Positions 1,459 through 48,818 of a stretch of DNA of 64,000 nucleotides are shown one piece after another. Under the pieces are notes generated by a model that was not told the origin of the DNA, ran no database searches, and saw only the letters and a program-made list of their open reading frames with translations. Location of the stretch: NCBI GenBank assembly GCA_026708965.1, contig JAPOTY010000034.1:15323-79322 (forward strand), given 5' to 3'. Origin of the DNA: Gammaproteobacteria bacterium (GTDB taxonomy: Bacteria; Pseudomonadota; Gammaproteobacteria; Steroidobacterales; Foliamicaceae). The translations under genes and the position numbers were made by a program. How positions within the stretch are numbered: position 1 is the stretch's first letter; each line of letters begins with the position of its first letter.

Positions 1459-2379
1459 TTATACCGGATCGGCGAAGCGGCGGTGGAAACGGCGGCGAGG
1501 GGCGGGCAAGGAGCCTTCGGCATTCTTCAGATTGCGGCAGATGTAATCGGCCGACGGCGCAGCCAGCGCCTTGTAGGCGCGCTTGATAAGTTCGCGCGAA
1601 GCGGAACCGGACCAGCCGGCCGGCAGAATCTCGTCGGGGAAGCCAGGATCGCGGAGCAGAATGCGGCGATAGTCGTGAACCATGAGGGTGCGCAGCCAGA
1701 AGCTCTCCTCGGGGGCCGGCTCGCCGGGGCGCCGCTCGCGCGCCAGCGGCCGGTAGAAACTAAGAAACTCGTCGTAATGGCCCTTGAGCGCGTCGAGGTT
1801 CCATTTTCTGCGGGCCAGATCCCGAACCGCGGATTGCGAATGGGGTTCCCCGGCGGATGCCTTGAACACCGTCACCTGTCCGGCGAGGCCCAGCCCGGCA
1901 ATGGTGTCGTCGAGCTCCTCGCGCTCGGCGGAGGGGCGCGCGTGCAAGCCGCTGGCCAGCGAACTGAAGCCTTGCCAGGAAAGGCTCTTGATCAAAGCGT
2001 CGCGCTTGCCCTCCGGCAGGGCGGGAATCAGCACCAAGGTCCAGAGGCCGTCCCATTCCGGGCGGGCAGGCGAGTAGATGCGCCGCGCCGCCCGTTCGTA
2101 ATGCCCCCGGGCCTGTTCGGTGAAGCAGAAATAGCTGCGCCGCCCCACCCTTTCGGCCTTGAGCCAGTCCTGCCGCGCCAGCCGGTTCGCCGCCGTGCGC
2201 AGGCGGCGCTCGCCGAATCCGAACGGCGCCAGCGCCTCGATCAGGCTGCCCAGCCAGATCCAGCCGCCGTGCTGGGACACGGCATCGCCGAACACGGTGA
2301 CGATCATCGAGGCGGCGCTGATGGAGCGGGCGGCCACCCGGTCGGCCAGGATGCGCGAAGTAACGGGGCGCGGCTTCAT
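1459..2379 (-). CDS. paaX: Phenylacetic acid degradation operon repressor PaaX
   Basis: 306-aa ORF, full-length PaaX-like (FGDAV..GGWIWLGSLIEAL..RRLRTAANRLARQDWL). ATGA overlap with the paaE stop. Confidence 0.85.
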   Translation of the reverse strand: MKPRPVTSRILADRVAARSISAASMIVTVFGDAVSQHGGWIWLGSLIEALAPFGFGERRLRTAANRLARQDWLKAERVGRRSYFCFTEQARGHYERAARRIYSPARPEWDGLWTLVLIPALPEGKRDALIKSLSWQGFSSLASGLHARPSAEREELDDTIAGLGLAGQVTVFKASAGEPHSQSAVRDLARRKWNLDALKGHYDEFLSFYRPLARERRPGEPAPEESFWLRTLMVHDYRRILLRDPGFPDEILPAGWSGSASRELIKRAYKALAAPSADYICRNLKNAEGSLPAPRRRFHRRFADPV

Positions 2380-3473
2380 AGCTGGTCGAAATCAACCGCC
2401 ACGCGATCGCTGACGGGATGGGCTTGGCAGGTCAGAATCAAGCCTTCGGCCAATTCCTGCGCGCTCAGCGCATGGTTGATATCCAGTTCCACTTGGCCTT
2501 CAAGCAAGCGCGCCCGGCAGGTGGCGCACACGCCGCCTTTGCAGGAGAAGGGAAGGTCGGCGCCGTTGCGCAGCGCGCCGTCCAAGATGCTTTCGCCGTC
2601 GCTGGAAAGCTCGAACCGCGCGGAGCGGCCCGCCGCGGTCACGGTCACGTCGCTGACCCGACCGGCGTGCTGCCGGGCGCGGGCCAGATGCTTCTCGACC
2701 GCGGCGCGGGCATCCTCGGCCGAAGACGAGAACAGCTCGTAATGGATGCGCGCCTCGTCCACGCCGGCGCCGCGCAGCCCGCGCGAGACCTCCGAAATCA
2801 TCGATTGCGGCCCGCACAGGAAAAATTCGTCGGTTGCGGCGATATCGATCAGGCGCTTGCGCTGCAACTCGGCGCCCTTGCGGTTATCGAGGCGGCCGTG
2901 GAGCACCTCGGCATCCTGCTCCTCTCGGCTTAGGATATTGATCCAGTTGAACCGCGCCAGGTAGCGGTTCTTAACAAAGCCCAGCTCGCTTTTGAACATC
3001 ACCGTGGCCGAGTTGCGGTTGCCGTAAAGGAGCGTCACGCGGCTTCGCGGCTCGCGCTTGAGGACGGTTTTGACGATCGAGAGAATGGGCGTGATGCCGC
3101 TGCCGATGCAGATGCACAGGTAGCGCTTGTCGTGATCCGCCGACAGCGGCGTGAAGAAATTGCCTTGCGGCGGCAGCGCGCGGATTTCGTCGCCGGCCCG
3201 CAAGCGCTCGTTGGCGTAGGTGGAGAACGCGCCGCCTTCGATCCGCTTGATGCCCACCTTCAGGCAGCCGTCGTCCACGCCCGAGCAGATCGAATACGAG
3301 CGGCCCACCTCCTCGCCGCCGATCTCGGTGCCGAGGGTCAGGTATTGCCCTTGGATGAAGCGGAACGCCTCGCGCAGGCCGCGGGGCACGTGGAAGGCAA
3401 CGCATACCGCGCCGCCGGCCTCGGGGCGCACTTCCGCCACCCGCAACGAATGCCAGCCGGACGAGCCTACCAC
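2376..3473 (-). CDS. paaE: 1,2-phenylacetyl-CoA epoxidase reductase subunit PaaE (FNR-like plus 2Fe-2S ferredoxin)
   Basis: WHSLRVAEV..., RSYSICS, GSGITPILSI and C-terminal CxxxxCxxC (SCKGGVCATCRARL). The track ORF (to 3797) has an Arg/Ala-rich non-homologous extension. GTG at 3473 gives the usual ~365 aa. Confidence 0.85.
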   Translation of the reverse strand: MVGSSGWHSLRVAEVRPEAGGAVCVAFHVPRGLREAFRFIQGQYLTLGTEIGGEEVGRSYSICSGVDDGCLKVGIKRIEGGAFSTYANERLRAGDEIRALPPQGNFFTPLSADHDKRYLCICIGSGITPILSIVKTVLKREPRSRVTLLYGNRNSATVMFKSELGFVKNRYLARFNWINILSREEQDAEVLHGRLDNRKGAELQRKRLIDIAATDEFFLCGPQSMISEVSRGLRGAGVDEARIHYELFSSSAEDARAAVEKHLARARQHAGRVSDVTVTAAGRSARFELSSDGESILDGALRNGADLPFSCKGGVCATCRARLLEGQVELDINHALSAQELAEGLILTCQAHPVSDRVAVDFDQL

Positions 3474-4228
3474 CGAAGCCCCGGATAAGCGCGCTGCATG
3501 GATTGCATCTCGGCGAGCAGATAGCCGTGATGCTCGGTATGCACGCCTTCCCTGCCGCCGGCAACGGACCATTCCTGCCCGGGCGCGTCGAGCGCGGCCT
3601 CCGCAAGGAGTGTTTCCATCAAGGCCCGCCAGCGGGGCTTGAGCGCGGAGCGGTCCGCCGACACGCCGCTTTCGAGCAGCGCCGCCTCGTGGCGGTCCAT
3701 CGCGAATAATTCCGGCCCGTAGCCCCATAGGCGGTCGAAAGCGCGTTGAATCCTGGCGCGGCTTTCGGCGGTGCCGCCGCCGAGCCGCAACACCCACTCG
3801 CGGCTGCGCTTGAGATGGAAGCGGCTCTCCTTGGCCGCCTCGGCGGCGAGCGCGGCGATGCGGGCATCGCTGGAGCGGGCGAGGCGCTTGAAATACTCCA
3901 GATGGAAGGCATCGACCATCGCTTGCCGCGCCATGGTATGGGCGAAATCGCCGATCGGCAGCTCGAAGATCAGCAGGTTGCGGTAGGCCCGGCTGTGCCG
4001 CAGGAAGGCGATTTGGTCAACGCTGCGGCGCCCTTGCTCGAGTTCCGACAGGTAGCGGTAGCACTTTTCGGCCCGGCCGAGGTAATCCAGCGCCACGTTG
4101 GCGATGGCGATATCCTCTTCCAGCAACGGCGCCTTGCCGCACCATTCCGACAGGCGCTGGCCCAGAATCAGCGAGTCGTCGCCCAGCGCCAGCAGGAAAT
4201 GGCCCAGCGCGCCTTGGGGGAGGCTCAC
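3467..4228 (-). CDS. paaC: 1,2-phenylacetyl-CoA epoxidase subunit PaaC
   Basis: Homologous part starts [34 protein letters not shown] at 4228 overlaps the paaB stop (GTGA). The track ORF upstream extension was rejected. Confidence 0.8.
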   Translation of the reverse strand: MSLPQGALGHFLLALGDDSLILGQRLSEWCGKAPLLEEDIAIANVALDYLGRAEKCYRYLSELEQGRRSVDQIAFLRHSRAYRNLLIFELPIGDFAHTMARQAMVDAFHLEYFKRLARSSDARIAALAAEAAKESRFHLKRSREWVLRLGGGTAESRARIQRAFDRLWGYGPELFAMDRHEAALLESGVSADRSALKPRWRALMETLLAEAALDAPGQEWSVAGGREGVHTEHHGYLLAEMQSMQRAYPGLRW

Positions 4229-4539
4229 AGGTTCTTCACCTCGGGCGGCAGGCGGTAGAAAGTGGCATGGCGGTAGGGCTTGTCGTTGGACGGATCGAAG
4301 AAGCTGGCGGCATCCTCCTCCTGCGAGGCCACGATATCGCTGGATTTCACCACCCAGATGCTCACGCCCTCGCCGCGGCGGGTATAGCAATCGCGCGCGA
4401 ATTTCAGCGCCTGGGGGCCGTCCTCGGCATGCAGGCTGCCCACGTGCTTGTGGTCCAAGCCGCGCCTGGAGCGCACGAACACTTCGTACAAGGGCAATTC
4501 CATGCCTTCCGCCATCGGCCCGGCTCGCTGCCTGCTCAT
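4225..4539 (-). CDS. paaB: 1,2-phenylacetyl-CoA epoxidase subunit PaaB
   Basis: 104 aa: ...[45 protein letters not shown] overlap with the paaA stop. Confidence 0.85.
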
Positions 4540-5531
4540 GCGATGCGAAGCCGCTCCGCTGAAGGCGGGACGGCCTCTTCGCCCGGTCCGGCGGCGCTTT
4601 TCCTCTCCTCGTAGGCGCGCAGGGCCTCGCGCACCCACTCGCCTTCGCGGTGCGCCTTGCTGTGCGCCGCCAAGCGCTCGCGGTTGCACGGGCCGTTGCC
4701 GGCAATCACCGCCTGGAACTCGTCCCAGTCGATGGCGCCGAAATCGTAATGGCCGCGCTCCGCGTTCCATTTCAGGTCCGGGTCCGGAACCGCCAAGCCC
4801 AGATGCTCCGCCTGCGGAACGGCCTGATCGACGAAATCCTGGCGCATCTCGTCGTTGCTCCGGCGCTTGATCTTCCACTGCATCGATTGGGCGCTATGCA
4901 CCGACTCGGCATCGTGCGGGCCGAACATCATCAGCGTGGGCCACCACCAGCGGTTCATCGCGTCCTGGGCCATCGCCTTCTGCTCCGGGCTGCCCGATGC
5001 CAGCGGCATCAGCATTTCAAAGCCTTGGCGCTGATGGAAGCTCTCCTCCTTGCAAATGCGGATCATCGCCCGCGAATAAGGGCCGTAGGAGGTGCGTTGC
5101 AGCGAAATCTGGTTAACGATGGCGGCGCTATCGACCAGCCAGCCGATCACTCCCACATCGGCCCAGGTGAGCGTGGGATAGTTGAAGATCGAGGCGTACT
5201 TGGCGCGCCCCTCGTGCAGCGCCTCGATCATTTCCTCGCGGGCAACGCCCAGCGTTTCCGCGGCGCTGTACAGGTAGAGGCCGTGCCCGGCCTCGTCCTG
5301 CACCTTGGCCAGCAGGATCATCTTGCGCTTCAGCGTGGGCGCGCGGGTAATCCAGTTGCCCTCCGGCTGCATGCCGATCACCTCCGAGTGCGCATGCTGC
5401 GAGATCTGGCGGACCAGGCTGCGGCGGTAGGCCGTCGGCATCCAGTCCTTGGGCTCGATCTTGCGCTCCTCATCGACGCGCTGCTGGAAGGCCGCCGCCA
5501 GCTCCGCATCGCTTAAGCGGTATTCGCTCAT
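4536..5531 (-). CDS. paaA: 1,2-phenylacetyl-CoA epoxidase catalytic subunit PaaA
   Basis: 331 aa, diiron-oxygenase-like ([11 protein letters not shown]..., [12 protein letters not shown]). Confidence 0.9.
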
Positions 5532-7570
5532 GCCAGCCTCCTCTCCACCAGCGTCAGCACGTCGTAGAGCGCCACCGCCTTATCCTCCTGGTTGACGATC
5601 TCCACGTCCCACACCACCACGCCAACGGCGCGGTCCTCGTCCGGGCGCTTTTCCTTGGCGATCTTCCTCTTGGCCGTCAGCCGCGCCTGGATGGTGTCGC
5701 CGATGCCCACCGGCTCGATGAAGCGCAGATTCTCCAGCCCGTAATTGGCCAGCACCGGCCCCGGCGCCGGATCGACGAACAGGCCGGCCGCCGCCGATAC
5801 CACGAAGTAGCCGTGCGCCACCCGCTTGCCGAACAGCGAATCCTTGGCCGCCTCCTCGTCGAAATGGGCGTAGAAATGATCGCCCGAAACGCAGCCGAAA
5901 TTCACGATATCGGCCTCGGTCACGGTGCGCCGGTGGGTGGTGAGGCGGTCGCCCACCTCGAGATCCTCGAAATGCTTGCGAAACGGATGGATGTCCGTTT
6001 CCCGGACCCGGGCGCCGGCCTGGTACTCGCGGGTAATGGCCGCCAGCGAGCGGGGCGAGCCTTGCACCGAGGTGCGCTGCATATAGTGCTTGACCGCCCG
6101 CGCTCCGCCCAGTTCCTCGCCGCCGCCGGCCCGGCCCGGCCCGCCGTGAACCAGCAGCGGCAGCGGCGAGCCGTGGCCGGTGGATTCCTTCGCGCAATCG
6201 CGGTTGAGCACCAGCATGCGGCCGTGCCAGGCCGCGGCGCCGAGCACGATCCGCGCCGCCTCGCCGTCGTCGCTGGTCACCACCGAGCCCACCAGGCTGC
6301 CGCGGCCCTTGGCGGCCAGATCAATCGCCTCGTCCGTGCCGCGGTACGGCATCAGCGTGGCCACCGGCCCGAAGGCTTCGGTCGAATGCGGCGCCTCCGT
6401 TGCGAGCGGGTCGGCGCAATAAAGCAGCGTGGGCGGATAGAAGGCATCGCGCACGGCGCGCTCGCCGACCAGCTCGAAATCGCCGCCGCCCAGCAGGATT
6501 TCGCAACTGCCGGCCAGCGCTTCCACGCTGGCCTGCACCTCGGCCTTCTGCGCGGCGCCCAGCAGCGGCCCCATGCGCACGCCCTCCGCCGCCGGATCGC
6601 CAACCGCCATTTTCGACAGCCGCGCCTTAAGGGCATCGGCCACCGGCTGCAGCTGCTGCTCCGGCACCAAGATGCGGCGGATCGCGGTGCATTTCTGCCC
6701 CGCTTTGGAGGTCATCTCGCGGACCACCTCCTTTATAAACAAGCCGAATTCCGGATCGTCCGCCTTCACTGATTCGCCCAGAACGCAGCAGTTCAGCGAG
6801 TCCGCTTCCTGATTGAACGGAATGCTGCGGGCGATGATGCCGGGGTGCGCCTTGAGCTTGCGGCCGGTTTCGGCCGAGCCGGTGAACGTGACCACATCCT
6901 GCTCGCGGAGATGGTCGAGGAGATTGCCGGCGCGGCCGCAAATGAGTTGCAGCGCGCCTTCCGGCAGCAGCCCGGAGGCGATGATTTGGCGCGCCATCGC
7001 CTCGGCCAGGTAGGCCGAGCCGGTGGCGGGCTTGACCACTGCCGGCACGCCCGCGATCAGGCTGGGGGCGATCTTCTCCAGCATTCCCCAGCAGGGGAAG
7101 TTGAACGCGTTGATATGCACCGACACGCCGCGCTTCGGGGTGAGGATATGGCGGGCCGAAAAGGTATTGCCGGCCGATAGCCGCTCGGGGCCGCCTTCCA
7201 CGATGAACGGCTCGTTCGGAAACTCGCGCCGGGCGATGCTGGAAAAACTGAAAAGGGTGCCGATTCCGCCCTCGATATCCACCCAGCTATCGGCCCGGGT
7301 GGCGCCCGTGCAGGCCGAGATCCGGTAGAGCTCGTCCTTGCGCTCAAGCAGGTGCTTGGCCAGCGCCTTGAGCGCCAAGGCGCGCTCGTGGAGGGTTAGG
7401 GCGCGCAGCGCGGGGCCGCCTTCGGAGCGCCCGTAATCCAGCGCCCGCGGCAAATCCACGCCCTCGCTGCTCGTGGAAGTGATACGTTCTCCGGTTACAG
7501 AATGGAAAATATGAGTTGTTTCTTCCGACCCCGGAATCCAATGGCCATAGACATAACTTTTTGTTTTCAT
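5528..7570 (-). CDS. paaZ: Bifunctional oxepin-CoA hydrolase / 3-oxo-5,6-dehydrosuberyl-CoA semialdehyde dehydrogenase PaaZ
   Basis: 680 aa. N-terminal ALDH domain ([27 protein letters not shown]) plus a C-terminal MaoC/hot-dog hydratase domain. Confidence 0.9.
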
Positions 7571-7780
7571 TTATTTATATATTTATTTAATTGGTCTCTT
7601 AGAGATAAGAGGAATAATTATAACTCATTTTTCTAAAATTTTTCTTTATAGATGTATCATATTGAAAGCAGGGAATGGTATGCTGCGCTTCTTGCCGAAC
7701 AGGGGCTTTCCGCCCTTGCCGAGGGCAGGATCCCCCCGTTCCTTGGCGGGAGGCAGCGGGTCATCAGGAGGCGCGGCGGA
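7571..7780. promoter_or_regulatory. Divergent paaZ / paaK control region with an extremely AT-rich core (7571-7651)
   Basis: About 80 bp of nearly pure A/T in a GC-rich genome, lying between divergent start codons. It contains an 11-bp palindrome TCTCT-T-AGAGA (7595-7605). Confidence 0.6.
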
Positions 7781-9085
7781 TTGAACTCCCAAAAGGGCTA
7801 CGAGGCGATCGAGAACGCCGGGATCGACGAGATCCGGGCGTTGCAGGCGGAGCGCCTAGGCCAGACGCTGCGGCACGCCTATCGGAATTCGCCCGTTTAC
7901 CGGCGGAAATTCGATGCGGCGGGCGTCAAGCCGGAGGATTTCCGCTCGCTCGGCGATCTGGCCCGCTTCCCGTTCACCACCAAGGCCGATCTTCGCGACG
8001 CCTACCCGTTCGGGCTCTGCTGCGTGCCGATGGAGCGGGTGGCGCGCATCCATGCCTCGAGCGGCACCACCGGCCAGCCCACGGTGGTGTGCTATTCGGC
8101 GGCGGATATCGACAGATGGGCCGGCTTGTGCGCGCGCTCGATCCACGCCGCCGGAGGCCGCCCCGGCGACAAGGTGCATGTGGCCTACGGCTACGGCCTT
8201 TTCACCGGCGGGCTCGGGGCCCACTACGGCGCTGAGCGCTTAGGCTGCGCGGTGATCCCCATGTCCGGCGGCCAAACCGCAAGGCAGGCGCAGCTGATCC
8301 GCGATTTCGACCCGGATATCATCATGGTCACGCCTTCGTATCTGCTGAATATCAGCGACGAGATGGCCCGCCAAGGCATCGACCCGGAAAGGCTGGCGCT
8401 GCGCTTGGGAATACTGGGCGCGGAACCCTGGAGCGAAGCGATGGGCGCGGAAATCGAAGCGCGGATGAAGCTGGACGCGGTGGATATCTATGGCCTGTCC
8501 GAAGTGATGGGCCCGGGCGTGGCCCAGGAGTGCGTGGAGAGCAAGGACGGCGCCACGATCTGGGAGGACCATTTCTATCCCGAAATCATCGATCCCGGCA
8601 CGGGCGCGGCGCTGCCCGACGGCGAACAGGGCGAACTGGTGTTCACGACGCTCACCAAGGAGGCCATGCCGGTGATCCGCTACCGCACCCGCGACCTCAC
8701 GCGGCTGCTGCCCGGCACAGCGCGCAGCATGCGCCGGATGGCCAGGATCGCCGGACGCAGCGACGATATGCTGATTATCCGCGGCGTGAACGTGTTTCCC
8801 AGCGCTATCGAGGAACAGGTCCTCAGCGTGGCCGGGCTTGCCCCGCACTACCTGATCGAAGTCGATCGGCGCGGCCGCCTCGACCAAGTGACGGTTGCGG
8901 CCGAGCGGCGGAACGAGGCGGCGGCGGAACCGGAGGCGCTGCGCGCCGAGCTGGCGCGCCGGATCAAGGATATTCTGGGCCTTTCCGCGCAGGTGGAAAT
9001 CGCCGCCCCCGGCAAACTGCCCCGCTCGCAAGGCAAAGCGGCGCGCATCATCGAAAAGAGCAGAACGCACAGCGAAACAGAATAA
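7781..9085 (+). CDS. paaK: Phenylacetate-CoA ligase PaaK
   Basis: SSGTTGQPTV motif. The N-terminus LNSQKGYEAIENAGIDEIRALQAERL aligns with the start of known PaaK proteins. TTG at 7781 is preceded by AGGAGG 9 nt upstream. The track ORF begins at ATG 7652 (a 43-aa non-homologous extension), so the start is uncertain. Confidence 0.85.
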   Translation: MNSQKGYEAIENAGIDEIRALQAERLGQTLRHAYRNSPVYRRKFDAAGVKPEDFRSLGDLARFPFTTKADLRDAYPFGLCCVPMERVARIHASSGTTGQPTVVCYSAADIDRWAGLCARSIHAAGGRPGDKVHVAYGYGLFTGGLGAHYGAERLGCAVIPMSGGQTARQAQLIRDFDPDIIMVTPSYLLNISDEMARQGIDPERLALRLGILGAEPWSEAMGAEIEARMKLDAVDIYGLSEVMGPGVAQECVESKDGATIWEDHFYPEIIDPGTGAALPDGEQGELVFTTLTKEAMPVIRYRTRDLTRLLPGTARSMRRMARIAGRSDDMLIIRGVNVFPSAIEEQVLSVAGLAPHYLIEVDRRGRLDQVTVAAERRNEAAAEPEALRAELARRIKDILGLSAQVEIAAPGKLPRSQGKAARIIEKSRTHSETE

Positions 9086-9371: not shown

Positions 9372-12300
9372 TCAGAACGACTGGCGGTAGCTCGCATAGA
9401 GGACGCGGCCGTCGAGGCTGTAGAGGTTGTACGCCTGCGGCAGCGGAGTTCGGAACGAGCCGAGCTCTGGATCTTCGTCGGTGAGGTTCCTCAGGCCCGC
9501 CGTGATGCGACCGTTCCAAGGCGCGGACCATTGATAGAATAGATCGAACTCGGTGTGCGCCGATATTGAGAACTCAACTTCCGGCAGGCCGAATCCGCCC
9601 ACATAGTGGGCATGGCCGGAAACGGTGTGATCGCCGTAGCGCCAGATGATTGCCGCCGAACTGCGCTCCGAGGGCCGGGCGCCGGCGGCCGCGGCAGCTC
9701 CGGAAACAGCGCCAAGGCCCGAACTCCATTGCGAGGCCGTGCGGGAGCGGGTCCGAAGCCGGAGGATGGTCCCGGCATGGAGCCGAAACTGGAAGTCGCC
9801 CAGCGCCGCGGTCGGCAGATCGTAGATCAGTTGCAGGTCAACGCCGCGGAACTGCGCGCGGTAGGTGTTGTCCCAGAACACATCGGCCTCCAGCAAAGCT
9901 CCGGTGGCCGGGTGGCGCTTGAGAAGGCTGCCGCTGCCGCAACGGATCATCGTTGCGGCGGTCGCCGAGTAGCGGGTGTTCTCGATCCGCCCGGTGCCGA
10001 GGCATTGCCCCTCGAACTCCAAGCCGATCAGCCCCTGCAGGGGCGGCAGTCCGATGCCGTTCTCAAGATCCACGTTCCAGAAATCCGCCCGGGCCGTCAG
10101 CGAGTCCCAAGCCGCCACCACGCCGAGGTTGTAGCTTTCGGACAGTTCCGGCCTGAGCGCCGGGTTGCCGCCGGTATAGGTGGGAACTTCCTCTTCGATG
10201 CAGTCCGTCGGGGCGATGCCGTCGCGGCGGCATTTGACCAGGTCGAAGCCCGTCTGCAGCCAAAGCGAGGTGCCGTCATAGAGGTTATTCATGCTGCCGG
10301 CGCGGAAACCCTCGCCCCAGGAAGCGCGCAGCAGCAGCCATCCGGCAGGCTGGTAGCGCGCCGAGAAGTAGGAACTCAGCTCGCTTCCGGCCGAATCGTC
10401 GTACTGGTCCCAGCGCAGCGCCGCGCTCAGTTGCAGATTGGGCAGCAGCGGCGCAAGCGCTTCGCCGAACAGCGCCCGGATGACCCGCTCGCCGGCGCCG
10501 CTCACGCCGAAGCGCCCGAGCAGGCCGCCGCCTGAGCTCAGCGGATCGTAGCGATCACGGTACTTCTCGTCGAAGTAATCAAACCCGAAGGCCCAGCTCA
10601 CCGGGCCGCCGCGCGTCCGCAAGAAATCGAAGCCCACATTGCCGCTATAGGAGCGGAGGTCCGCGCGGGAATCGCGGGTGGATTTCGCGGCAATCGCTTG
10701 CAGAGCGGCGGCGTTGCCGGGATGCAAGGGATCGAACGGGTTGTACAGGCCTTGCGAAACTTGCGCCTGGGTGGCGAATGCCCTGGGAAAGCAGCAACTG
10801 TTTTCGCGGCCAGCGTAGCGGGTATGCCTGGCTTCGAGCTGGTAGTGGAAGATGCCGGCGCCGCCATGCGCGAGAAGCGCATTCTCATGCAGGGTCAGCA
10901 GCGCCTCGAAATTGCGGCCGCCCAGGCCCGCAAAGCGGTGCCGCAGCGTGTAGGGGAGCAACTCGGGATAAGGAACGCCGAAATCAAATCCGCGCTCCAG
11001 CCCGGCGGCGGCGGCTTCGGTCAGCAGGATATCGCCGGGCGGCGGCGCCAGCCGCCCATGCACGTTCTGCGCGCTGAACAGCGATTGCAGGCGCAGCGCA
11101 TGGCTGGAAGAAAGCTCGTATTCCGCGTGCAGAAAAGCGCTGGCCCGCTGCAAGTCGGTGGTTTCCCAAGCCGCAACGGCGTAATGGAATCCGCAATGCT
11201 CCTCGCCGGAGGCGGAGACGTAAGGCCCGGCCAACAGCCGCCGCCCGGTTGCCGGATCAAGGACTTGCTCGCAATTGGGCGCGGCCTTGCGGTGCGGCCA
11301 GATGGTATTGCCCCAGGAACTCACGTTGTCGGCGTTCTCCCAAGCGCGCCAGGCAGCGGTAAACGGCGCCTGCGGATAGGCGGCGGGGGGAGATTCGTGG
11401 CCTGTGGTTCCGAGCGTGTAGAACCGGTCTGCCGAAGCAATATGCTCCTTGTTGCGGAAATCGGCGCTGAACAGAAAGCGTCCGCGCTCGCTGGCGCCGC
11501 CTAGCGTCAGCATACCGGATTCCGTATCCGCGCCTTCGCGGCTGGGCCGGGCCAGCGAGGTTGCCGCTTCGATGCCTTCATAGCGCTTGCGCAAAATGAT
11601 ATTGACCACGCCGCCAATGGCGTCCGAGCCATAAATGGCCGAAGCGCTGTCGGTCAGAATCTCGATGCGTTCCACGGCCGCCAGCGGAATAATGTTGAGA
11701 TCGACCGCCTGATTGGCCGTGATCGGCGACCGCGGCGCCCGGCGGCCATCCAGCAGCACCAGCGTGCGATTCGCGCCAATGCCGTGCAGGCTGAAGGCGG
11801 CCTGCCCGATCCAAGCGTGGCCTGATTGCTCGCGCGACGAGCCGAGACTGTTGACCGGGCTGTTCCTGAGCACGTCGGCCACCGATTCCCGGCCGCTCAA
11901 CTCGATATCCTCGCGCGTTATCACCACCATGGGGCGCGCCTCCTCCATATCGATCCGCCGAATCCGCGAGCCGGTAACCACCTGCCGCCCGAGCGCCGCA
12001 AACTCCCTGCCTGCGGCCGCGCCAGCGGTCTGCGAATCGTCGCCGGCGCGCTCGAAATCGAAGCTGAACAATATTTCCGGCTCATCGCCGCCGCGATCGG
12101 CGAGCAAGCCGCACTGGTAGGGAAACACATGCCGCCGCCGGTATTCCCGCGCCAGCTGCTGTGCTTGCACGAGCCGCTCGGGGCCCAGTATCCTGGCGGC
12201 ACGGTCATTGAATTCCTCGATCATCGCGCCGGATTCGCCCATGCCCAGGTCCATCAGTTGCGCCAGCGCCGATATTTCCCTTGCATGGGCTTGCTCCATT

Positions 12301-13847
12301 GCTGCCCGGAACCAGCCGTAAGCCTGCACCAGGTCCTTGGAAACGGCTTCGCCCGTGTAATGCATATAGCCCAGAAGGAGTTGCGCCATTGCAATCCCCT
12401 GTTCGGCAGCCTTTTGCAGCCACTCGGCAGAGGCGGCCGGATCCCGCTTCATTCCCTCCATGCCCAGAAACTGCGCGAAACCCAGCATGGCCTGGGCCCA
12501 GGAATGGTTTTGCTCAGCAGCGCGGCGCATCGAGGCTATCGCCAAGTCCATGTCTTCGGACATCGCGGCAACGCTGATCGACAATTGCGCCCGCGGCGAT
12601 CCCTGCTCAGCCAGCTCCCCAAGATGTCGGCGCGCAGGACGGTTGCCGTTACCAGCGAGCAGAATCAGCTCCCCCAGAGCCGGAGCGTTTCCGGAGCTGG
12701 CGGCCAAGAATAGCCATTCGACCGCCTGGCTCCCGTCTTGCGCCACAGCTCGACCTTGGGCATGCATGCGGCCAAGCTCAAGCTGCGCGCGCCCGTTTCC
12801 CTGCGCCGCCAGCCCCTGAATCCAGTCGAGCGCGGGAGTGTGCCCCTTCTCCGCCAGATCGCCAAATCCAATGATCGCAGCGTCTGGATGCCGCTTTTCC
12901 AAGCGTCGATACCACTGAAAAGCGGCAGCCAGATTCCGGTCCGCATCCTGCCCCTGCGCAGACATGCGCGCCATGCTGCGCTGCGCCTGCGGCCTGCCCC
13001 GCTCCGCCTCCCTGCGGATCAGCTCGGCGGCAGGCGCAAAGCCCATCCCTGCCAGACCCGCCAATCCGTCGAAAGCATCGGAAACAGGGCCCCGCAACTG
13101 CGCGGAGCCGCGGCCGCCCCCTGAATCAAGGACCTTGAGGTACCACCCGTACGCCTGCTCAAGGTCCGGCGCCACTCCATTGCCTTCGGCGAATTTATCC
13201 CCCAGCCGCGCCTGCGCTTCGGCCAATCCCCGGCGGGCAGCCTTGTGGAACCACTCGATGGCGATGCCGCTGTCCGCAGTCAAACCGTGCTTGCCTTCAT
13301 CGTACGCGGCGCCCAGCCTGAACTGCGCCCGGGCATTGCCTTGCTCCGCCGCCATTCGGTACCAGCCAAGAGGATTTCTTGCTGCCGGGCCTTCCGCCGG
13401 CATCAGGCTTTCCGAGTCATCCTCGTATGCCTCGCCCAAAGCAAACTGCGCTTCCGCAAGGCCCTGGTCAGCCGCTTTGCGATACCACAGCGCGGCGATC
13501 ATCTTGCTGCCGCGCCTGCCGCCCGCGCTGCATATCTCGCCCAGCGAGTGCTGCGCTTGGGCCTCGCCTTGCTCGCCCGCTTCCAGGCACCAGCGCAAAG
13601 CCGCCGCCTTGTCCTGGGGAACGCCGCGGCCAAGGCGGTAGACATTGCACAACGCGTTCTGCGCCTTTGCGTCGCCCCCGTTTGCCGCTCGCTCAACAAC
13701 GAAAAGGGCTTGGCCCTGATCGCCCTTGCCTGCCTCAACCGCGCTTATCGCTTCCTTAAGCGGCCCTGCGGCTTGATCCGGCTCCTGTTTCGCAACGGCG
13801 GAAATTGATGCCAGCAACACAAGCATCAATGCGGGGCGCATCTGCAT
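9372..13847 (-). CDS. TonB-dependent outer-membrane receptor with a ~600-aa N-terminal Sel1-repeat (TPR-like) extension
   Basis: Single continuous ORF. Signal peptide MQMRPALMLVLLASISAVA from ATG 13847. It has more than 10 Sel1-like units (A.A...LG..Y..G.GV..D...A..W). A plug follows (VVITREDIELSG, FSLHGIGANRTLVLLDGRR, IERIEILTDSASAIYGSDAIGGVVNI), then a beta-barrel ending in the terminal ...YASYRQSF. Confidence 0.8.
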   Translation of the reverse strand: MQMRPALMLVLLASISAVAKQEPDQAAGPLKEAISAVEAGKGDQGQALFVVERAANGGDAKAQNALCNVYRLGRGVPQDKAAALRWCLEAGEQGEAQAQHSLGEICSAGGRRGSKMIAALWYRKAADQGLAEAQFALGEAYEDDSESLMPAEGPAARNPLGWYRMAAEQGNARAQFRLGAAYDEGKHGLTADSGIAIEWFHKAARRGLAEAQARLGDKFAEGNGVAPDLEQAYGWYLKVLDSGGGRGSAQLRGPVSDAFDGLAGLAGMGFAPAAELIRREAERGRPQAQRSMARMSAQGQDADRNLAAAFQWYRRLEKRHPDAAIIGFGDLAEKGHTPALDWIQGLAAQGNGRAQLELGRMHAQGRAVAQDGSQAVEWLFLAASSGNAPALGELILLAGNGNRPARRHLGELAEQGSPRAQLSISVAAMSEDMDLAIASMRRAAEQNHSWAQAMLGFAQFLGMEGMKRDPAASAEWLQKAAEQGIAMAQLLLGYMHYTGEAVSKDLVQAYGWFRAAMEQAHAREISALAQLMDLGMGESGAMIEEFNDRAARILGPERLVQAQQLAREYRRRHVFPYQCGLLADRGGDEPEILFSFDFERAGDDSQTAGAAAGREFAALGRQVVTGSRIRRIDMEEARPMVVITREDIELSGRESVADVLRNSPVNSLGSSREQSGHAWIGQAAFSLHGIGANRTLVLLDGRRAPRSPITANQAVDLNIIPLAAVERIEILTDSASAIYGSDAIGGVVNIILRKRYEGIEAATSLARPSREGADTESGMLTLGGASERGRFLFSADFRNKEHIASADRFYTLGTTGHESPPAAYPQAPFTAAWRAWENADNVSSWGNTIWPHRKAAPNCEQVLDPATGRRLLAGPYVSASGEEHCGFHYAVAAWETTDLQRASAFLHAEYELSSSHALRLQSLFSAQNVHGRLAPPPGDILLTEAAAAGLERGFDFGVPYPELLPYTLRHRFAGLGGRNFEALLTLHENALLAHGGAGIFHYQLEARHTRYAGRENSCCFPRAFATQAQVSQGLYNPFDPLHPGNAAALQAIAAKSTRDSRADLRSYSGNVGFDFLRTRGGPVSWAFGFDYFDEKYRDRYDPLSSGGGLLGRFGVSGAGERVIRALFGEALAPLLPNLQLSAALRWDQYDDSAGSELSSYFSARYQPAGWLLLRASWGEGFRAGSMNNLYDGTSLWLQTGFDLVKCRRDGIAPTDCIEEEVPTYTGGNPALRPELSESYNLGVVAAWDSLTARADFWNVDLENGIGLPPLQGLIGLEFEGQCLGTGRIENTRYSATAATMIRCGSGSLLKRHPATGALLEADVFWDNTYRAQFRGVDLQLIYDLPTAALGDFQFRLHAGTILRLRTRSRTASQWSSGLGAVSGAAAAAGARPSERSSAAIIWRYGDHTVSGHAHYVGGFGLPEVEFSISAHTEFDLFYQWSAPWNGRITAGLRNLTDEDPELGSFRTPLPQAYNLYSLDGRVLYASYRQSF

Positions 13848-13906
13848 GAGAAGACTTGGGGGTTCCCTGGATCGATGGATGGCGCGCCGCATCGCCGAAA
13901 GCGGGG

Positions 13907-15274
13907 TTAGCGGCGCGGCGGCATCGGCTCCTGGTCGCGGCGGGTTTGGGCGCGGCCCAGCCCAACGGACAACGCGCACCACACAGCGGCGAAGGGCACG
14001 GTGGCGCCCACCATGAGCGCGAGGCTGCCCAAGGCGCTGAGCACCACCTGCAGGCCGGTGCCGGCCAAGTCGCCGAAGCGGTACAGGAACACATCCACCA
14101 CGGGCTTGGCCTTGTAGCGTTCGGCAGGAGGGACGACGCTGAACAGGGTTTCGCGGGCCGGACGCGAAATCGCGTAGCGGGTGGCGCGATGAACGGCCTG
14201 GAACACGGCCATCACGCCAAAGACCGGCCAGATGGCCAGCACCGCGAATCCGGCCAGCGTCACCAGCGGCAGTATGGCCAGCGTCCAGCCCACGCCCAGC
14301 TTGCGGATCAGGCGGGTCGTGATAAAGATCTGGGTGATTAGCGTTGCGGTTTGCGTCAGCGCGTCCATCAGCGCATACGAGCTGACAAGCTGGCTGAAGT
14401 TATCGCTGCGATTCAGGATGATGTTCGCTTGCGTGAAGTAGATCAGCGTATTGGAAATAGCCATGAACATGATCCACAGCGCAATGCCCAGCAGGTAGGG
14501 CGAGCGCGCCACGGCGGCGGCGCCGTCCCAGAAATTGCCGCCCATGCCGGATGGCGCGTTAGGCGCGGCGGGCGAATCGCCGGATGCCGCCGCCGGATTC
14601 CCCAGCCGGGAGTGGCCGGAGCGCGCGGCCCGGCGGTCCAGCGTGAGCATCAGGATGATCGCCACCACGAAGAACCCCGCCCCGATGGCCATCAGCCCCA
14701 CCGGAAGATAGACAGACTCCGTTGCGGACGCGATCCGGTTGGTGGCCCAGCCGCCGGCCAGCGCCCCGATGGTGCCGCCAATGCCGATAAAGGCGAATAT
14801 CCGCTTGCCCTGCTCCACGCTGAAAAGATCCACCATGAAGGCCCAGAAAATGCTGTTGATGAACAGGTTGATGGCGCTCAGCCACACGTAGAACGTGTAG
14901 CCCACGCCGCGCGCCAGAGCGGTCTCGGAGCCGGAGCCGATCAATCCGCCCCCGGCCCGGGCATCCACAACGAGCAGGCCGGCAAACAAGAACAGGCAAG
15001 CCACCACGAAGCCGTAAGCCACCGGAATGAAGCGCCGGCGATCCATGCGGGCCACCACGCCGCCGAACAGCAGCACCAGAACCAGGGACGACACCACGGT
15101 GACGCCGAACAGCCAGTAGAGTTCGCCCATGCCGCGGGCCACGCCCATGGCGTCGCGCACCGGGCGCACGAAAAAATACCCGCAAAGCACGCAGAAGTAG
15201 AAAGCGGCGGCCAGCGCCGCCAGCGGGAATTCCGCCCGCCGGATATTGAAAATCCGCGCCGCCCAATCGGTCAT
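13907..15274 (-). CDS. MFS-type membrane carrier of the TLC (ATP/ADP translocase, Npt)-like family
   Basis: 455 aa, polytopic. FFVRPVRDAMGV, VDLFSVEQGKRIFAFIGIGGTIGALAGG and RETLFSVVPPAERYKAKPVVDVFLYRFGD resemble TLC-family signatures. Confidence 0.65.
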   Translation of the reverse strand: MTDWAARIFNIRRAEFPLAALAAAFYFCVLCGYFFVRPVRDAMGVARGMGELYWLFGVTVVSSLVLVLLFGGVVARMDRRRFIPVAYGFVVACLFLFAGLLVVDARAGGGLIGSGSETALARGVGYTFYVWLSAINLFINSIFWAFMVDLFSVEQGKRIFAFIGIGGTIGALAGGWATNRIASATESVYLPVGLMAIGAGFFVVAIILMLTLDRRAARSGHSRLGNPAAASGDSPAAPNAPSGMGGNFWDGAAAVARSPYLLGIALWIMFMAISNTLIYFTQANIILNRSDNFSQLVSSYALMDALTQTATLITQIFITTRLIRKLGVGWTLAILPLVTLAGFAVLAIWPVFGVMAVFQAVHRATRYAISRPARETLFSVVPPAERYKAKPVVDVFLYRFGDLAGTGLQVVLSALGSLALMVGATVPFAAVWCALSVGLGRAQTRRDQEPMPPRR

Positions 15275-18055: not shown

Positions 18056-20158
18056 ATGCAAGCAAGCAACGAACCATTCGCAAAAATAATCGACGGCCCT
18101 AAACAATTCGTCATTCCTGTTTTCCAGCGGGACTTTTGCTGGACCTTTGAGCAGTGCGAGCAATTGTGGCGGGACGTAAAGCGTGCCGCCGAGAGAACAA
18201 TAGACAGCGGACACTTCATGGGATCGATTGTCTATATCCAGGGCGAAGGGCGCGCTTCTTGCCCCATCTATTTGCTGATTGATGGCCAACAGCGACTGAC
18301 GACGTTAACTGTGCTCATGGTCGCGTTGCGCGACCACATTCAAGCGACGAACTGGTCTGGAAGCGATGATGGACCCACCACCGAAAAGTTGAATACTTGC
18401 TACTTGAAGAACACCGCCGAGAGCGGCCAGAAGCGCTACAAACTCGTGCTCCGCCGCAGAGACAAAGCCACGCTCCAAGCGCTCATTGATGAAAAGAACC
18501 CATCCGAACTCGAAGCCGAATCATCAGAGTTGCTAGTTGAAGCGTACAAGTTCTTCCGATCCGCCCTACAGGCATCGGATTCTGACCCGGAGAAGGTGTA
18601 TCAAGGCGTTGCCCGTTTGAATATTGTTGACGTAACGCTCTCCCGAAATGTCGATAACCCTCAGCTCGTTTTTGAGAGCATGAATTCCACCGGAATCGAT
18701 CTGCGACAAAGCGACCTGGTTCGGAATTACCTTCTCATGGGGCTCAGGGAATCGGAGCAAACTCGTCTTTACAACGAGTATTGGAGCAAGATCGAGTCGT
18801 TTTTCCGTGCGTCCGGGAGCGCATTCGACGGATTCCTACGTGATTACATGGCGCTGGAACAGGGCCTGACGCAACAGATTCGCGGAGATCGCACCTACGA
18901 CGAATTCAAGTCTTTCTGGAATAGCGAAGCGGAGAAGCCGCTGGAGGACCTGCTCTCCGACATGGTCCGTGTTGGACGAACCTACGCGTCGTTTCTTGGG
19001 ATAGCAACGATGCAGCGGCCATGGCTTGCTGATGCCATGAGCCATATGCGGTCATTGAACACAACCCAAGCCTTGCTGGTCATGCGGCTCTACGATTCCC
19101 ATGAAAAGGATCGACTCTCCCGGGAGGAATTCATTCAAGCCGTGACATTGATCGAGAGCTACCTATTGCGCCGCGCCGTGCTGGGTTTGCAGACGCGAGG
19201 CTATTGGTCTGTCTTCGCACGAATTGCGCACGATCTCAATCCCGATTCAGTTTTTGAGTCGTTGAAGGCCGCGTTTGCGCGACTTGGCGGCAACTACCGG
19301 TTCCCAAGTGACCAAGAATTCAGCAGGGAGTTACAAGAACGCGACCTGTACGATCTGCGCGTGTGCAAGCATGTGCTCGACCGGCTGGAAAACTTCGAAC
19401 ACTCAGCAGAGCCTAGCCCCGTCGCTAACTACTCAATCGAGCACGTCATGCCGCAAGAGATCACACCGGAATGGGAGAAGATGATTGGCGAAAATGCTGC
19501 CGAGCAGCATGCGGCTTGGGTACATCGATTAGGAAACTTGACGCTGACGGCGTACAACAGCAAATACTCGAATCGACCGTTCGGGGAAAAGAAGGACATA
19601 AAGGGCGGATTCCAAGATAGCGCTGTACGGCTGAACAGGGACATCAAAGATGCTGAGCGGTGGACACCTAAGGAAATCGATGCGCGCGGAAAACGCTTGG
19701 CGGCGCAAGCGCTTCAGATTTGGCCACACCATAAAGCTGATGCGACTAGCATACAAGAAGCGGAAAGACGCGATCTCATAAAACGCGCGTCCAAACACAA
19801 TCCCAGCGAACTCAAGATGGACAAAGCTGCCCGGCAAGTGCTCGACCGAATTCTTGCATCCGTCCGTAGGCTGGGCGATGTCATAGAGGTGATCGAGCAA
19901 AAGTCCGTTTGCTGTTACTACGGAACTAGCTTCTTCGCCGAAATCCTGCCGATGAGCGGTTACGTCAGAGTGATGCTCCCACTGGATTTCAATGAGGTCG
20001 CAATACCCGAGGGGTTAAATGTATCCGATTCATCCTCATGGAAATTCGTTCCAAACCGAGTGCATACCAACAGCAACTTGATAGTGGATGTTGGAGGCGA
20101 AACTAAGGTCGCCGCATTGATACCAATGATACGGCAGGCCTTGGATCAGTCACGGTAA
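18056..20158 (+). CDS. GmrSD-like DUF262 / DUF1524 protein (type IV restriction-like) with an extra C-terminal domain
   Basis: 700 aa. The DUF262 motifs are FVIPVFQRDFCW and LLIDGQQRLTTL. The DUF1524 His-Me finger-like motifs are YSIEHVMPQ and HRLGNLTLTAYNSKYSNRPF. About 140 further C-terminal residues follow. GAAGGAG RBS. The DNA is visibly AT-richer than the flanks. Confidence 0.8.
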   Translation: MQASNEPFAKIIDGPKQFVIPVFQRDFCWTFEQCEQLWRDVKRAAERTIDSGHFMGSIVYIQGEGRASCPIYLLIDGQQRLTTLTVLMVALRDHIQATNWSGSDDGPTTEKLNTCYLKNTAESGQKRYKLVLRRRDKATLQALIDEKNPSELEAESSELLVEAYKFFRSALQASDSDPEKVYQGVARLNIVDVTLSRNVDNPQLVFESMNSTGIDLRQSDLVRNYLLMGLRESEQTRLYNEYWSKIESFFRASGSAFDGFLRDYMALEQGLTQQIRGDRTYDEFKSFWNSEAEKPLEDLLSDMVRVGRTYASFLGIATMQRPWLADAMSHMRSLNTTQALLVMRLYDSHEKDRLSREEFIQAVTLIESYLLRRAVLGLQTRGYWSVFARIAHDLNPDSVFESLKAAFARLGGNYRFPSDQEFSRELQERDLYDLRVCKHVLDRLENFEHSAEPSPVANYSIEHVMPQEITPEWEKMIGENAAEQHAAWVHRLGNLTLTAYNSKYSNRPFGEKKDIKGGFQDSAVRLNRDIKDAERWTPKEIDARGKRLAAQALQIWPHHKADATSIQEAERRDLIKRASKHNPSELKMDKAARQVLDRILASVRRLGDVIEVIEQKSVCCYYGTSFFAEILPMSGYVRVMLPLDFNEVAIPEGLNVSDSSSWKFVPNRVHTNSNLIVDVGGETKVAALIPMIRQALDQSR

Positions 20159-20984: not shown

Positions 20985-22133
20985 ATGTATGAAAGATTTC
21001 TTGCCACGCCCAACAGTTCGGTATTCCTGTTCGGTCCCCGGGGTGTCGGCAAGACCACCCTTTTAAGGCAAAGGTTTCCATCCGCCGCCACCTACGACCT
21101 GCTCGATTCCCGCGAGGCGGTGCGGCTTGAGCAGGCGCCGCAACAACTTTATGACGAATGCAGCGCGCTCGACAGAGGTTCGTGGGTGGTCATCGACGAG
21201 GTGCAGCGGATCCCCGCGCTGCTGAACGAAGTCCATCGGCTCATCGAACAGCGCGGACTGCGCTTCGTCCTTACCGGATCAAGCGCCAGAAAGCTCCGTC
21301 GCGGCGGAGTGAATCTCTTGGCGGGAAGGGCGCTCACCAAAAACCTGTTTCCGCTGGTTTCGGCGGAACTCGCCCGCAACTTCGACGTGAGCCAGACTCT
21401 GCGATTCGGATCCCTGCCGAGCGTGATTGTCAATCACGAGCAGGTCGATTACCTGCAAAGCTACACATCCACCTATCTTCTACAGGAAATCCAGCAGGAA
21501 GCTTTTACCCGCAACCTGGGCGGTTTCGCGAGGTTCCTGGAGATCGCCGCCCGGCAGAACGGCCAGCGGACCAACATGCTCAATATCTCCCGGGATGCCG
21601 GGGTGAAGCGCGGCACCGTCGGCAACTATTTCGAGATCCTAGTGGACACCCTGATCGGCTTCTGGCTGCCGGCTTGGGAGTTGAAGCCGAAGACGCGGCA
21701 GGTAAAAAGCAGCAAATTCTATTTCTTCGACTGCGGTGTATGCCGGGCGCTGACCCGGCGCTTGCCCTTCCCGCCGTCGCAGGAAGAATTAGGGCCGCTG
21801 CTGGAGACTTTCGTCATCAACGAGCTGCGGGCGTATCTGTCCTACAGGAATCTTTACTACCCGTTGCGCTACTGGTCTTCGTACAACGGCGTGGAGGCGG
21901 ATATCGTTCTGGAAACGGCTCGGGGCTTCGTGGTGATCGAAATCAAAGCAGCGAACCGGTGGGAGAAAAAATTCCAGCGCGGACTCAAAATAGCCGCCGA
22001 ACGCCTGGGCGAGAGGAAAACCCGGCGCTACGGCGTTTACCTAGGCGCTAGAACCCTGCTGCTGGATAACGTGCGAGTCTATCCGGTACGGGATTTTCTG
22101 GCGGAACTGTGGGACGGCGACCTCGTCCGGTAA
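20985..22133 (+). CDS. AAA+ ATPase with DUF4143 / nuclease-like C-terminal region
   Basis: Walker A is FLFGPRGVGKTTL and Walker B is WVVIDEVQRIP. The C-terminal EADIVLE...VVIEIK looks like a PD-(D/E)xK motif. Confidence 0.75.
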   Translation: MYERFLATPNSSVFLFGPRGVGKTTLLRQRFPSAATYDLLDSREAVRLEQAPQQLYDECSALDRGSWVVIDEVQRIPALLNEVHRLIEQRGLRFVLTGSSARKLRRGGVNLLAGRALTKNLFPLVSAELARNFDVSQTLRFGSLPSVIVNHEQVDYLQSYTSTYLLQEIQQEAFTRNLGGFARFLEIAARQNGQRTNMLNISRDAGVKRGTVGNYFEILVDTLIGFWLPAWELKPKTRQVKSSKFYFFDCGVCRALTRRLPFPPSQEELGPLLETFVINELRAYLSYRNLYYPLRYWSSYNGVEADIVLETARGFVVIEIKAANRWEKKFQRGLKIAAERLGERKTRRYGVYLGARTLLLDNVRVYPVRDFLAELWDGDLVR

Positions 22134-23718: not shown

Positions 23719-24084
23719 TTAGCGGATGCGCAGCGCGGCGGCGACGGCGCGGCCCTCGGAGAGCAGCACGTTGTAGGTGCGGCAGGCGGCGCCGGTGTCC
23801 ATCACCTCTAGGCCGATGCCCCGGTTCAGGAGGCCCATGCCGAGCTCGTGCGGCGGAAAGCTCTGGCGTTCGCCCGTGCCCAATAGGATGACATCCGGCT
23901 GCTCCGCGATGAGCGGCGCGAGGTGGTCCAGCGTGATGGCTTCGTCATCCCCCAAGGCCCAAGGGAGCACTTCGCGGGCGTTCAGCAGCACCGGCTGCCG
24001 CCAGACTGCCTGGCCGATCCGCAGCTCCCCGGGGTGCCAGGAACGCACGCGGAGCGCGCCGGAAGGCTCGAGTTCCAGCTTCAA
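23719..24084 (-). CDS. Mth938-like / DUF498 domain protein
   Basis: 121 aa. ...PDVILLGTGERQSFPPHELGMGLLNRGIGLEVMDTGAACRTYNVLLSEGR. Confidence 0.6.
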   Translation of the reverse strand: MKLELEPSGALRVRSWHPGELRIGQAVWRQPVLLNAREVLPWALGDDEAITLDHLAPLIAEQPDVILLGTGERQSFPPHELGMGLLNRGIGLEVMDTGAACRTYNVLLSEGRAVAAALRIR

Positions 24085-24102
24085 GACAAAGCCGCCGCCA
24101 CG

Positions 24103-25713: not shown

Positions 25714-25745
25714 TCTCGGACCTCAAGCCATGCTTTCCGGGCGCC

Positions 25746-37124: not shown

Positions 37125-37199
37125 GCTCCCTTCGTCTAGGGGTCAGGACACCAGACTCTCAATCTGGAAACAGGGGTTCGATTCCCCTAGGGAGCGCCA
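37125..37199 (+). tRNA. tRNA-Glu (anticodon CUC)
   Basis: Hand-folded cloverleaf. Acceptor GCTCCCT/AGGGAGC; D arm GTCT..GGAC. The anticodon stem is CCAGA/TCTGG with loop CT-CTC-AA. T arm AGGGG-TTCGATT-CCCCT; discriminator G plus encoded CCA. Close to the E. coli tRNA-Glu scaffold. Confidence 0.9.
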
Positions 37200-48815: not shown

Positions 48816-48818
48816 CCT

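Follow-up and report, generated by a model that had tools for sequence, protein, structure and literature searches.

In a 64,000-nucleotide stretch of DNA from a member of the Gammaproteobacteria (contig JAPOTY010000034.1, positions 15,323 to 79,322; the window, hereafter), a single gene is predicted to encode a TonB-dependent outer-membrane transporter that carries, ahead of its TonB box, a solenoid of Sel1-like repeats of about 550 residues (~60 kDa). The explanation that we favor, to which we give somewhat better than even chances as a whole, is that this gene specifies a functional transporter and that its solenoid would act as a tethered periplasmic scaffold recruiting partner proteins, by analogy with stand-alone Sel1 proteins such as FciB. 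As judged from the searches run, the fusion is rare and confined to a small group of uncultured Gammaproteobacteria. The sequences are public but, as far as our searches reach, undescribed, and they represent a well-supported new type of N-terminal extension on a known class of transporter.

The gene occupies window positions 9372-13847 on the minus strand and consists of 1491 codons and a stop (stop codon 9372-9374). A preliminary description of this DNA, made from its letters alone, had placed a single uninterrupted 1491-codon open reading frame (ORF) at these coordinates, which is correct, and had left the strand unstated; a plus-strand reading of 9372-13847 was rejected, as its translation is full of stops, and the gene is therefore assigned to the minus strand. 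The minus-strand frame is open over 9372..13982, and the 1491-aa product of the ATG at 13847 is 100% identical to a database protein (P0001). A second in-frame ATG at 13892 would yield 1506 codons, adding 15 residues, and the signal peptide is kept with either start; the residue numbers of the Pfam matches given below are counted from the 13892 start. The next gene upstream ends at a stop at 13907. The encoded domains follow one another in the order signal peptide, Sel1-like solenoid, disordered acidic tether, TonB box, plug and barrel ending in F. In a Pfam scan of the whole protein, the check that the preliminary description had called for, the Sel1, Plug and TonB_dep_Rec_b-barrel families were matched in one chain and were the only families found at E ≤ 0.01; the signal peptide, plug and terminal F of the barrel named in that description are all present according to sequence, Pfam and models. 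The signal peptide (13788..13847, minus strand; MQMRPALMLVLLASISAVA/KQ, with the cleavage site read by eye) is of the Sec type without a lipobox, and residues 1-25 were modeled with a predicted local distance difference test score (pLDDT) below 50. The G+C content is uniform over the Sel1 and transporter parts of the gene (0.62-0.67), and a search of the gene for DNA-level tandem repeats found none; on these grounds a recent foreign insertion of the Sel1 part was rejected.

The Sel1-like repeat solenoid (12114..13772, minus strand; residues about 26-578) has ~15 helix hairpins and is capped at its C-terminal end by a helix of 40 residues. The Pfam Sel1 model (PF08238) matched with 138.8 bits against a cut-off of 30.7 (E 3e-41), with five stretches passing individually, and sequence matches of the Sel1 part to solved Sel1 proteins in the PDB reached E 8e-54. 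For residues 1-640, an AlphaFold2 model based on an alignment of 9 sequences had a mean pLDDT of 80 and a predicted template modeling score of 0.76. It contains 30 helices in residues 27-531, arranged as hairpins with a period of roughly 30-37 residues, in line with the more than 10 Sel1 units of ~36 aa reported earlier, and closes with the capping helix (539-578), followed by a conserved VFPYQCGLL. The cysteines C67, C87, C106 and C579 are invariant. Foldseek comparison of the N-terminal part retrieved EsiB (4bwr), Oxalobacter 6ok3, SEL1L/Hrd3, LceB, LpnE and HcpC (best match 5e-18), with a probability of 1.00 for the solenoid against EsiB, 6ok3, SEL1L and HcpC. The solenoid thus shares its repeat fold with EsiB/c5321, the Oxalobacter formigenes protein 6ok3, LpnE, LceB and HcpC; these, however, are free secreted or periplasmic proteins or effectors, and none is attached to a membrane barrel. 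Matches of the Sel1 part to AlgK (NCBIfam 1.2e-8; Foldseek 3e4b at 1e-4) and to ExoR (NCBIfam 5.9e-6) were weak. The phenylmercury resistance protein MerG was considered and rejected, since its NCBIfam model (NF033786) scored 141.7 bits against a cut-off of 350 over five stretches, which amounts to generic Sel1 similarity.

The C-terminal part of the protein was identified as a transporter by several features. The plug domain (11607..11942, minus strand) matched PF07715 with 74.5 bits against a cut-off of 23.9 (E 1e-20, residues 651-762), and the beta-barrel (9375..11606, minus strand) matched PF00593 with 102.3 bits against 27 (E 7e-29, residues 1066-1470). The plug resembles those of Cir, BtuB and PfeA in PDB sequence matches, and the protein ends in ...YASYRQSF, with a terminal F. 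A second AlphaFold2 model, covering residues 292-1491 and based on an alignment of 80 sequences, reached a pLDDT of 85, with both the solenoid and the plug and barrel confident (barrel mostly 85-95). Foldseek matched the C-terminal part to PirA, PfeA, Cir, FepA and BtuB with target template modeling scores of 0.72-0.81, and no solved chain among the Foldseek matches holds both the solenoid and the transporter parts. With this protein, every NCBIfam equivalog model fell far short of its cut-off; the SusC/RagA model gave 20.7 bits against a cut-off of 368. On its sequence features, namely plug, plugged barrel, signal peptide, TonB box and terminal aromatic residue, the protein is a member of the TonB-dependent transporters. 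It shares all of these with plain transporters such as BtuB, Cir, FepA/PfeA and PirA, but has ~590 residues more than they do, namely the solenoid and the tether, which lie after the signal peptide and ahead of the TonB box.

To the same gene organization belong at least eight other uninterrupted full-length fused homologues on independent contigs, with 60-96% identity. The same three Pfam families were found in P0002 (96%), P0003 (73%), P0004 (70%), P0005 and P0006 (both 68%) and P0141 (~60%), the last of which is named 'TonB-dependent receptor domain-containing protein [Candidatus Foliamicus sp.]' at NCBI; several of the fused homologues lie on contigs of 2.4-3.5 Mb. At two further loci, L093 (MKWU01000006.1) and L094 (LXNJ01004071.1), a single tblastn alignment covers residues 4-1491 with 71-72% identity. 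In P0005 and P0006, the signal peptide appears once the short gene calls are extended to an in-frame upstream start. The fusion is therefore not a frameshift or assembly artefact, given this number of independent intact homologues. The preliminary description had worried about a frameshift-merged pair of genes and had suggested a search for the same architecture in other genomes: the former is excluded by the frame remaining open through the junction on at least eight independent contigs, and the latter found the architecture intact and conserved, in one clade only in the searches run. We thus leave only a very slight chance that adjacent Sel1 and transporter genes were merged by a frameshift or a lost stop in this window alone. 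A related locus (L011) does have a stop after the Sel1 part, but there the frame continues beyond the stop into the linker, TonB box and plug start before a deletion. No internal signal peptide precedes the TonB box.

The Sel1 part is under purifying selection. The ratio of non-synonymous to synonymous substitution rates (dN/dS), calculated for six pairs, was 0.27-0.38 in the Sel1 part and 0.13-0.19 in the transporter part, with dS up to 1.3. At the protein level the Sel1 part evolves faster than the transporter part, and the reading frame is whole in at least nine sequences with Sel1-part identity down to 45%.

A search with the transporter part alone revealed ~20 protein clusters of ~919 aa that are 75-84% identical and have no Sel1 domain; unfused relatives reach 75-94% identity in the transporter part. 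Their N-termini consist of a signal peptide and ~15 acidic residues, followed by ELGRQVVTGSRI, and they share the neighborhood lysS, TLC-like permease, transporter, paaK and paa operon. The window is collinear at the DNA level with one such unfused locus, L007 (lysS 80%, permease 86%, paaK 81% and paaA 90% identity, and 79% for the transporter between its TonB box and its stop codon). The exception is a 5' stretch of ~1.9 kb in the gene, most of it coding for the Sel1 part, for which no counterpart could be detected in L007. Similarly, loci L009 and L010 show 92% nucleotide identity that starts near the TonB box. The solenoid is thus a discrete module, present or absent among near-identical transporters.

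The transporter part of the fused P0006 shares 94% identity with that of the unfused P0131 and P0132, compared with 86% for the fused P0005, and a neighbor-joining tree, calculated without bootstrap values, places fused forms among unfused ones. On the basis of this tree and the pairwise identities, the idea that the fused forms are monophyletic was rejected. No fused form occurs in a more distant paralogue group (55-62% identity) or among the outgroups. At L011, a broken fusion (L011:8001-10040) carries an in-frame stop after the Sel1 part, and the remnant is then deleted into a truncated pyridoxal phosphate-dependent decarboxylase gene; an intact unfused transporter of 924 aa (L011:11713-14487) lies 1.8 kb downstream of the remnant and adjoins paaK. 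Because linker, TonB box and first plug residues follow the stop in the same frame, L011 holds a broken fusion rather than an ancestral two-gene state. A stop between the Sel1 and transporter parts, which the preliminary description had named as the observation that would overturn the fusion, does therefore exist in a relative, but as a decayed fusion and not as two normal genes. Finally, P0240 in locus L012 is a free-standing homologue of the whole module, 39-45% identical, which ends right after ...YPYQCGLQTDVD with no transporter remnant behind it.

The likeliest history is that a free periplasmic Sel1 protein was fused once to this group of transporters and that fused and plain alleles were later lost, swapped or differentially inherited; the neighbor-joining tree and the identities settle the question of gain versus loss only in part. 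The same pattern bears on the proposal, to which we assign a low probability, that the solenoid is a near-neutral appendage, joined in frame by chance, tolerated thanks to the long tether and now disappearing from one lineage after another. A patchy distribution over near-identical transporters, the decayed copy in L011 and the faster protein-level rate of the Sel1 part are what such a history would produce, but a dN/dS of ~0.3 over divergences with dS up to 1.3, a full-length frame kept in so many divergent sequences, the four invariant cysteines and the conserved cap motif argue against it.

The rarity of the architecture was assessed by an exhaustive phmmer search with residues 1-1200 against 1.84 billion representative proteins. 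Among the best 150 matches, P0141 alone matches across both the Sel1 and transporter parts, and the others are either proteins with Sel1 repeats alone or plain transporters 850-1020 residues long; any fusion with a score under about 245 bits would have escaped this listing. In 80 generic large Sel1 loci from reference genomes (27-37% identity), tblastn found no transporter within flanks of up to 6 kb. A Pfam-31 survey of 34,893 TonB-dependent transporters distinguished five N-terminal architectures (none, CarboxypepD_reg, STN and AMIN combinations), none of them with Sel1 (PMC6434023), and our literature search found no paper combining TonB-dependent, Sel1 and N-terminal extension, nor any that mentions Foliamicus. 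The novelty claimed in the preliminary description, which had noted that known extensions are small, is upheld in that a Sel1 array is missing from the architectures of the published survey and the known types (STN, CarboxypepD_reg, AMIN) are indeed small.

The solenoid is joined to the plug by an acidic disordered tether (11994..12113, minus strand; residues about 579-618), which has a pLDDT below 50 in both AlphaFold2 models. A 36-residue stretch of it, ADRGGDEPEILFSFDFERAGDDSQTAGAAAGREFAA, contains nine D/E and three K/R, which agrees with the short acidic linker described earlier. Residues 585-640 are disordered in the model of residues 1-640, and ~48 residues with a pLDDT below 50 join the solenoid to the plug and barrel in the model of residues 292-1491. 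The tether is variable across the alignment of fused homologues. Within it, a strand-like alternating hydrophobic motif, PEILFSFxFER, is semi-conserved (window 12048-12113; alignment A1 columns about 606-620) and occurs as PEILFSFDFER, PELLFIFSPDR and PQMTFVMIFER, reminiscent of a second TonB-box-like element. The motif is missing from the free-standing P0240 and from unfused transporters. The TonB-box region follows the tether (11961..11993, minus strand; LGRQVVTGSRI, continuing RRID). It varies little among fused homologues, and unfused ones have an almost identical sequence, the region LGRQVVTGSRIRRID being kept in all homologues with minor substitutions only. We take the TonB box to be of the 'VVTGSRI' kind found in the TIGR01782-like group (Xanthomonas/Caulobacter type); the TIGR01782-like model itself gave only a weak match to the window protein.

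The position of the tether raises the possibility that the solenoid regulates energization, either by binding the periplasmic domains of TonB/ExbD or by masking or presenting its own TonB box as an auto-inhibitory or TonB-recruiting arm. The module lies ~40 residues upstream of the invariant TonB box, and the tether motif PEILFSFxFER could pair by beta-augmentation as TonB boxes do. A further protein, P0053 (1050 aa), joins many Sel1 repeats (PF08238) to a C-terminal TonB_C domain (PF03544). However, the same TonB box works without the module in unfused orthologues, the strand-like motif was modeled at a pLDDT below 50, and no tonB or exbBD gene was noted adjoining any of the loci examined. 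We therefore regard regulation of TonB as unlikely, although it heads the alternatives to a partner-recruiting scaffold, which in decreasing order of likelihood are TonB modulation, STN-like signaling, an envelope-spanning tether and the near-neutral appendage considered above.

The scaffold that we favor would be a periplasmic one. In TonB-dependent transporters the N-terminus, the TonB box and everything ahead of the plug are periplasmic; the solenoid is accordingly expected in the periplasm, on a flexible leash before the segment gripped by TonB. Sel1 solenoids are protein-binding scaffolds. We propose that the arm would serve as a built-in protein-protein scaffold that keeps at least one partner from the periplasm or the inner membrane at the channel exit, candidates being a binding protein or enzyme, the neighboring TLC-like permease or parts of the TonB-ExbBD machinery. 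Tethering of a partner would make the hand-off of imported substrate more efficient and would not be essential for transport itself, a helpful but dispensable role that fits the presence-or-absence pattern of the module. The arm would then be the fused equivalent of stand-alone periplasmic Sel1 proteins from transporter operons. Precedents for Sel1 proteins linked to such transporters are FciB, a Sel1-like periplasmic protein encoded in the fciTABC operon of Stenotrophomonas maltophilia and required for ferri-stenobactin acquisition (PMC11852561), and a Sel1 protein that is among the most frequent neighbors of CciT/CciO transporter-oxygenase pairs, in <25% of genomes (PMC12004943). As in those systems, a periplasmic Sel1-class protein is linked to a TonB-dependent transporter in the window. 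In contrast to FciB and the CciT/CciO-associated protein, which are separate polypeptides in iron-uptake operons, the Sel1 part of the window protein is covalently joined to its transporter, is much longer and shows no hint of control by iron.

Several observations weigh against a functional, partner-recruiting fusion. The nearest relative, P0002 (96% identity, on a 3.18-Mb contig), has 1341 aa compared with 1491 aa in the window protein, owing to an in-frame gap of ~150 residues in the barrel (alignment A1 columns about 1006-1155), which may mean that the allele is decaying or that the assembly has collapsed there. Lineages have lost or exchanged the module more than once, and the copy in L011 has decayed; whatever benefit it brings is therefore conditional. 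At the loci examined, no gene visibly co-varies with the presence or absence of the arm, and the TLC-like permease adjoins the transporter in only three of the six lineages examined. The parallel with FciB consists of a shared repeat class and operon context, not of demonstrated homology.

As a more specific form of the scaffold, we tentatively consider that the Sel1 arm could be a periplasmic adaptor that physically links the TonB-gated channel with either a permease of the inner membrane or the Ton complex. The result would be a trans-envelope import assembly, an importer counterpart of the tetratricopeptide repeat arms of BcsC and PgaA. If so, the fusion would be a 'Rosetta stone' indicating that stand-alone Sel1 proteins of the FciB type bind the periplasmic face or the N-terminus of their transporter. 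More generally, should the arm dock a periplasmic or inner-membrane partner, it would hint at how the stand-alone Sel1 proteins of transporter operons (FciB, Stenotrophomonas) work. The same-locus transporters with and without the arm, the free-standing arm and the decayed fusion form natural matched controls with which the contribution of the arm can be dissected.

Folded domains N-terminal to the TonB box are already familiar in FecA/FpvA (STN) and Oar/SusC (CarboxypepD_reg), where, as in the window protein, they are periplasmic. STN and CarboxypepD_reg extensions are ~80 residues long and have a beta or alpha-beta fold, whereas the window extension is a ~550-residue all-alpha repeat solenoid; neither STN (PF07660) nor CarboxypepD_reg (PF13620/PF13715) was matched in the window protein at E ≤ 0.01. 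A 60-kDa protein-binding solenoid leashed before the TonB box is thus a different design from the small STN, CarboxypepD_reg and AMIN extensions, and it raises the questions of what the arm binds and how TonB pulls on a TonB box with a large upstream load. The preliminary description had suggested docking for signaling or for partner capture, and its signaling version found no support. In that version, the solenoid would be a trans-envelope signaling extension in the role that STN plays in the FecA/FpvA transducers, relaying substrate binding to an inner-membrane regulator. It does occupy the STN position, and there are regulators among the periplasmic Sel1 proteins, for instance ExoR, to which the Sel1 part has the weak match noted above. 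However, besides the missing STN domain, no extracytoplasmic function sigma or anti-sigma domains were found in the neighboring ORFs scanned or in the Pfam lists of homologous loci. The regulators near the loci also differ (PaaX, GerE, AraC-like), and close orthologues in the same regulon context have no module. Such a signaling role is, in our estimate, improbable.

An alternative of similarly poor prospects is a structural tether or spacer, estimated at more than 10 nm, that would anchor the barrel to peptidoglycan or to an inner-membrane complex, or that would even serve export. In BcsC, PgaA, PelB and the pair AlgK with AlgE, a periplasmic alpha-solenoid scaffold is combined with an open 16-18-strand porin, which has neither plug nor TonB box and is encoded in synthase operons. 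Like BcsC/PgaA/PelB and AlgK-AlgE, the window protein combines an outer-membrane barrel with a long alpha-solenoid ahead of it in the periplasm, within one chain as in the former, and the analogy is one of body plan only. Also in favor of a spacer are the weak AlgK matches and the fact that Oar, a transporter of the same class, supports protein secretion (PMC6434023). However, the window barrel is a predicted TonB-gated importer, plugged and with an intact TonB box, not an open porin of 16-18 strands. No BcsC-, PgaA- or PelB-type Pfam match was obtained, and unlike the synthase operons, the surroundings of the gene are catabolic and housekeeping, with no synthase genes at the window locus and no polysaccharide synthase or secretion genes seen in any locus.

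Directly upstream of the transporter gene and on the same strand lies a TLC/MFS-like inner-membrane permease (13907..15274, minus strand), 14 nt before the ATG at 13892, and the two genes are possibly co-transcribed. Its Pfam matches were weak (TLC, E 1.9e-7, and MFS_1), with TIGR00769 well below cut-off. L007 and L010 likewise have the two genes next to each other, overlapping by 4 nt in L010; they lie 3-5 kb apart in L001, L002 and L093. The permease may continue the same uptake route across the inner membrane. The neighboring ORFs scanned comprised paa genes, the TLC-like permease, lysS, GmrSD and ORFs without family matches. A phenylacetate cluster (paaK, paaZ, paaA and a PaaE-like reductase) and an indolepyruvate:ferredoxin-oxidoreductase-like pair are located at window 2376-9085 and 46686-50447, which suggests aromatic amino-acid catabolism around the transporter. 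Nothing found in the sequence points to iron as the substrate: the TonB box is of the VVTGSRI type, and no Fur box was detected with up to three mismatches allowed. An Rfam scan of the window found no riboswitch, its sole match being a tRNA at 37125-37196, and promoter and terminator scans gave results at chance level.

The remainder of the window is largely housekeeping, with eno, pyrG, a lptF/lptG-family permease, pepA and valS. Beside lysS, a GmrSD-type restriction endonuclease (18056-20158, plus strand) and an AAA_14/DUF4143 ATPase (20985-22133, plus strand) form a small defense-like or variable island, and AAA_14/DUF4143, PIN/MazE, HipA, AbiE and MmeI genes recur in variable DNA around homologous loci. 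Two long plus-strand ORFs, of 1000 aa (53723-56725) and 663 aa (23923-25914), have no Pfam match at E ≤ 1e-5 and may be spurious high-G+C ORFs or uncharacterized genes. In a Candidatus Foliamicus sp. (L005/L006:8001-14185), the fused gene is situated between cdsA and rseP/bamA, in the conserved rpsB-tsf-pyrH-frr-uppS-cdsA cluster. Unlike the lysS-paa context elsewhere, it is accompanied there by helix-turn-helix/Peptidase_M78 and PIN genes, and it looks like an insertion, possibly acquired by horizontal transfer.

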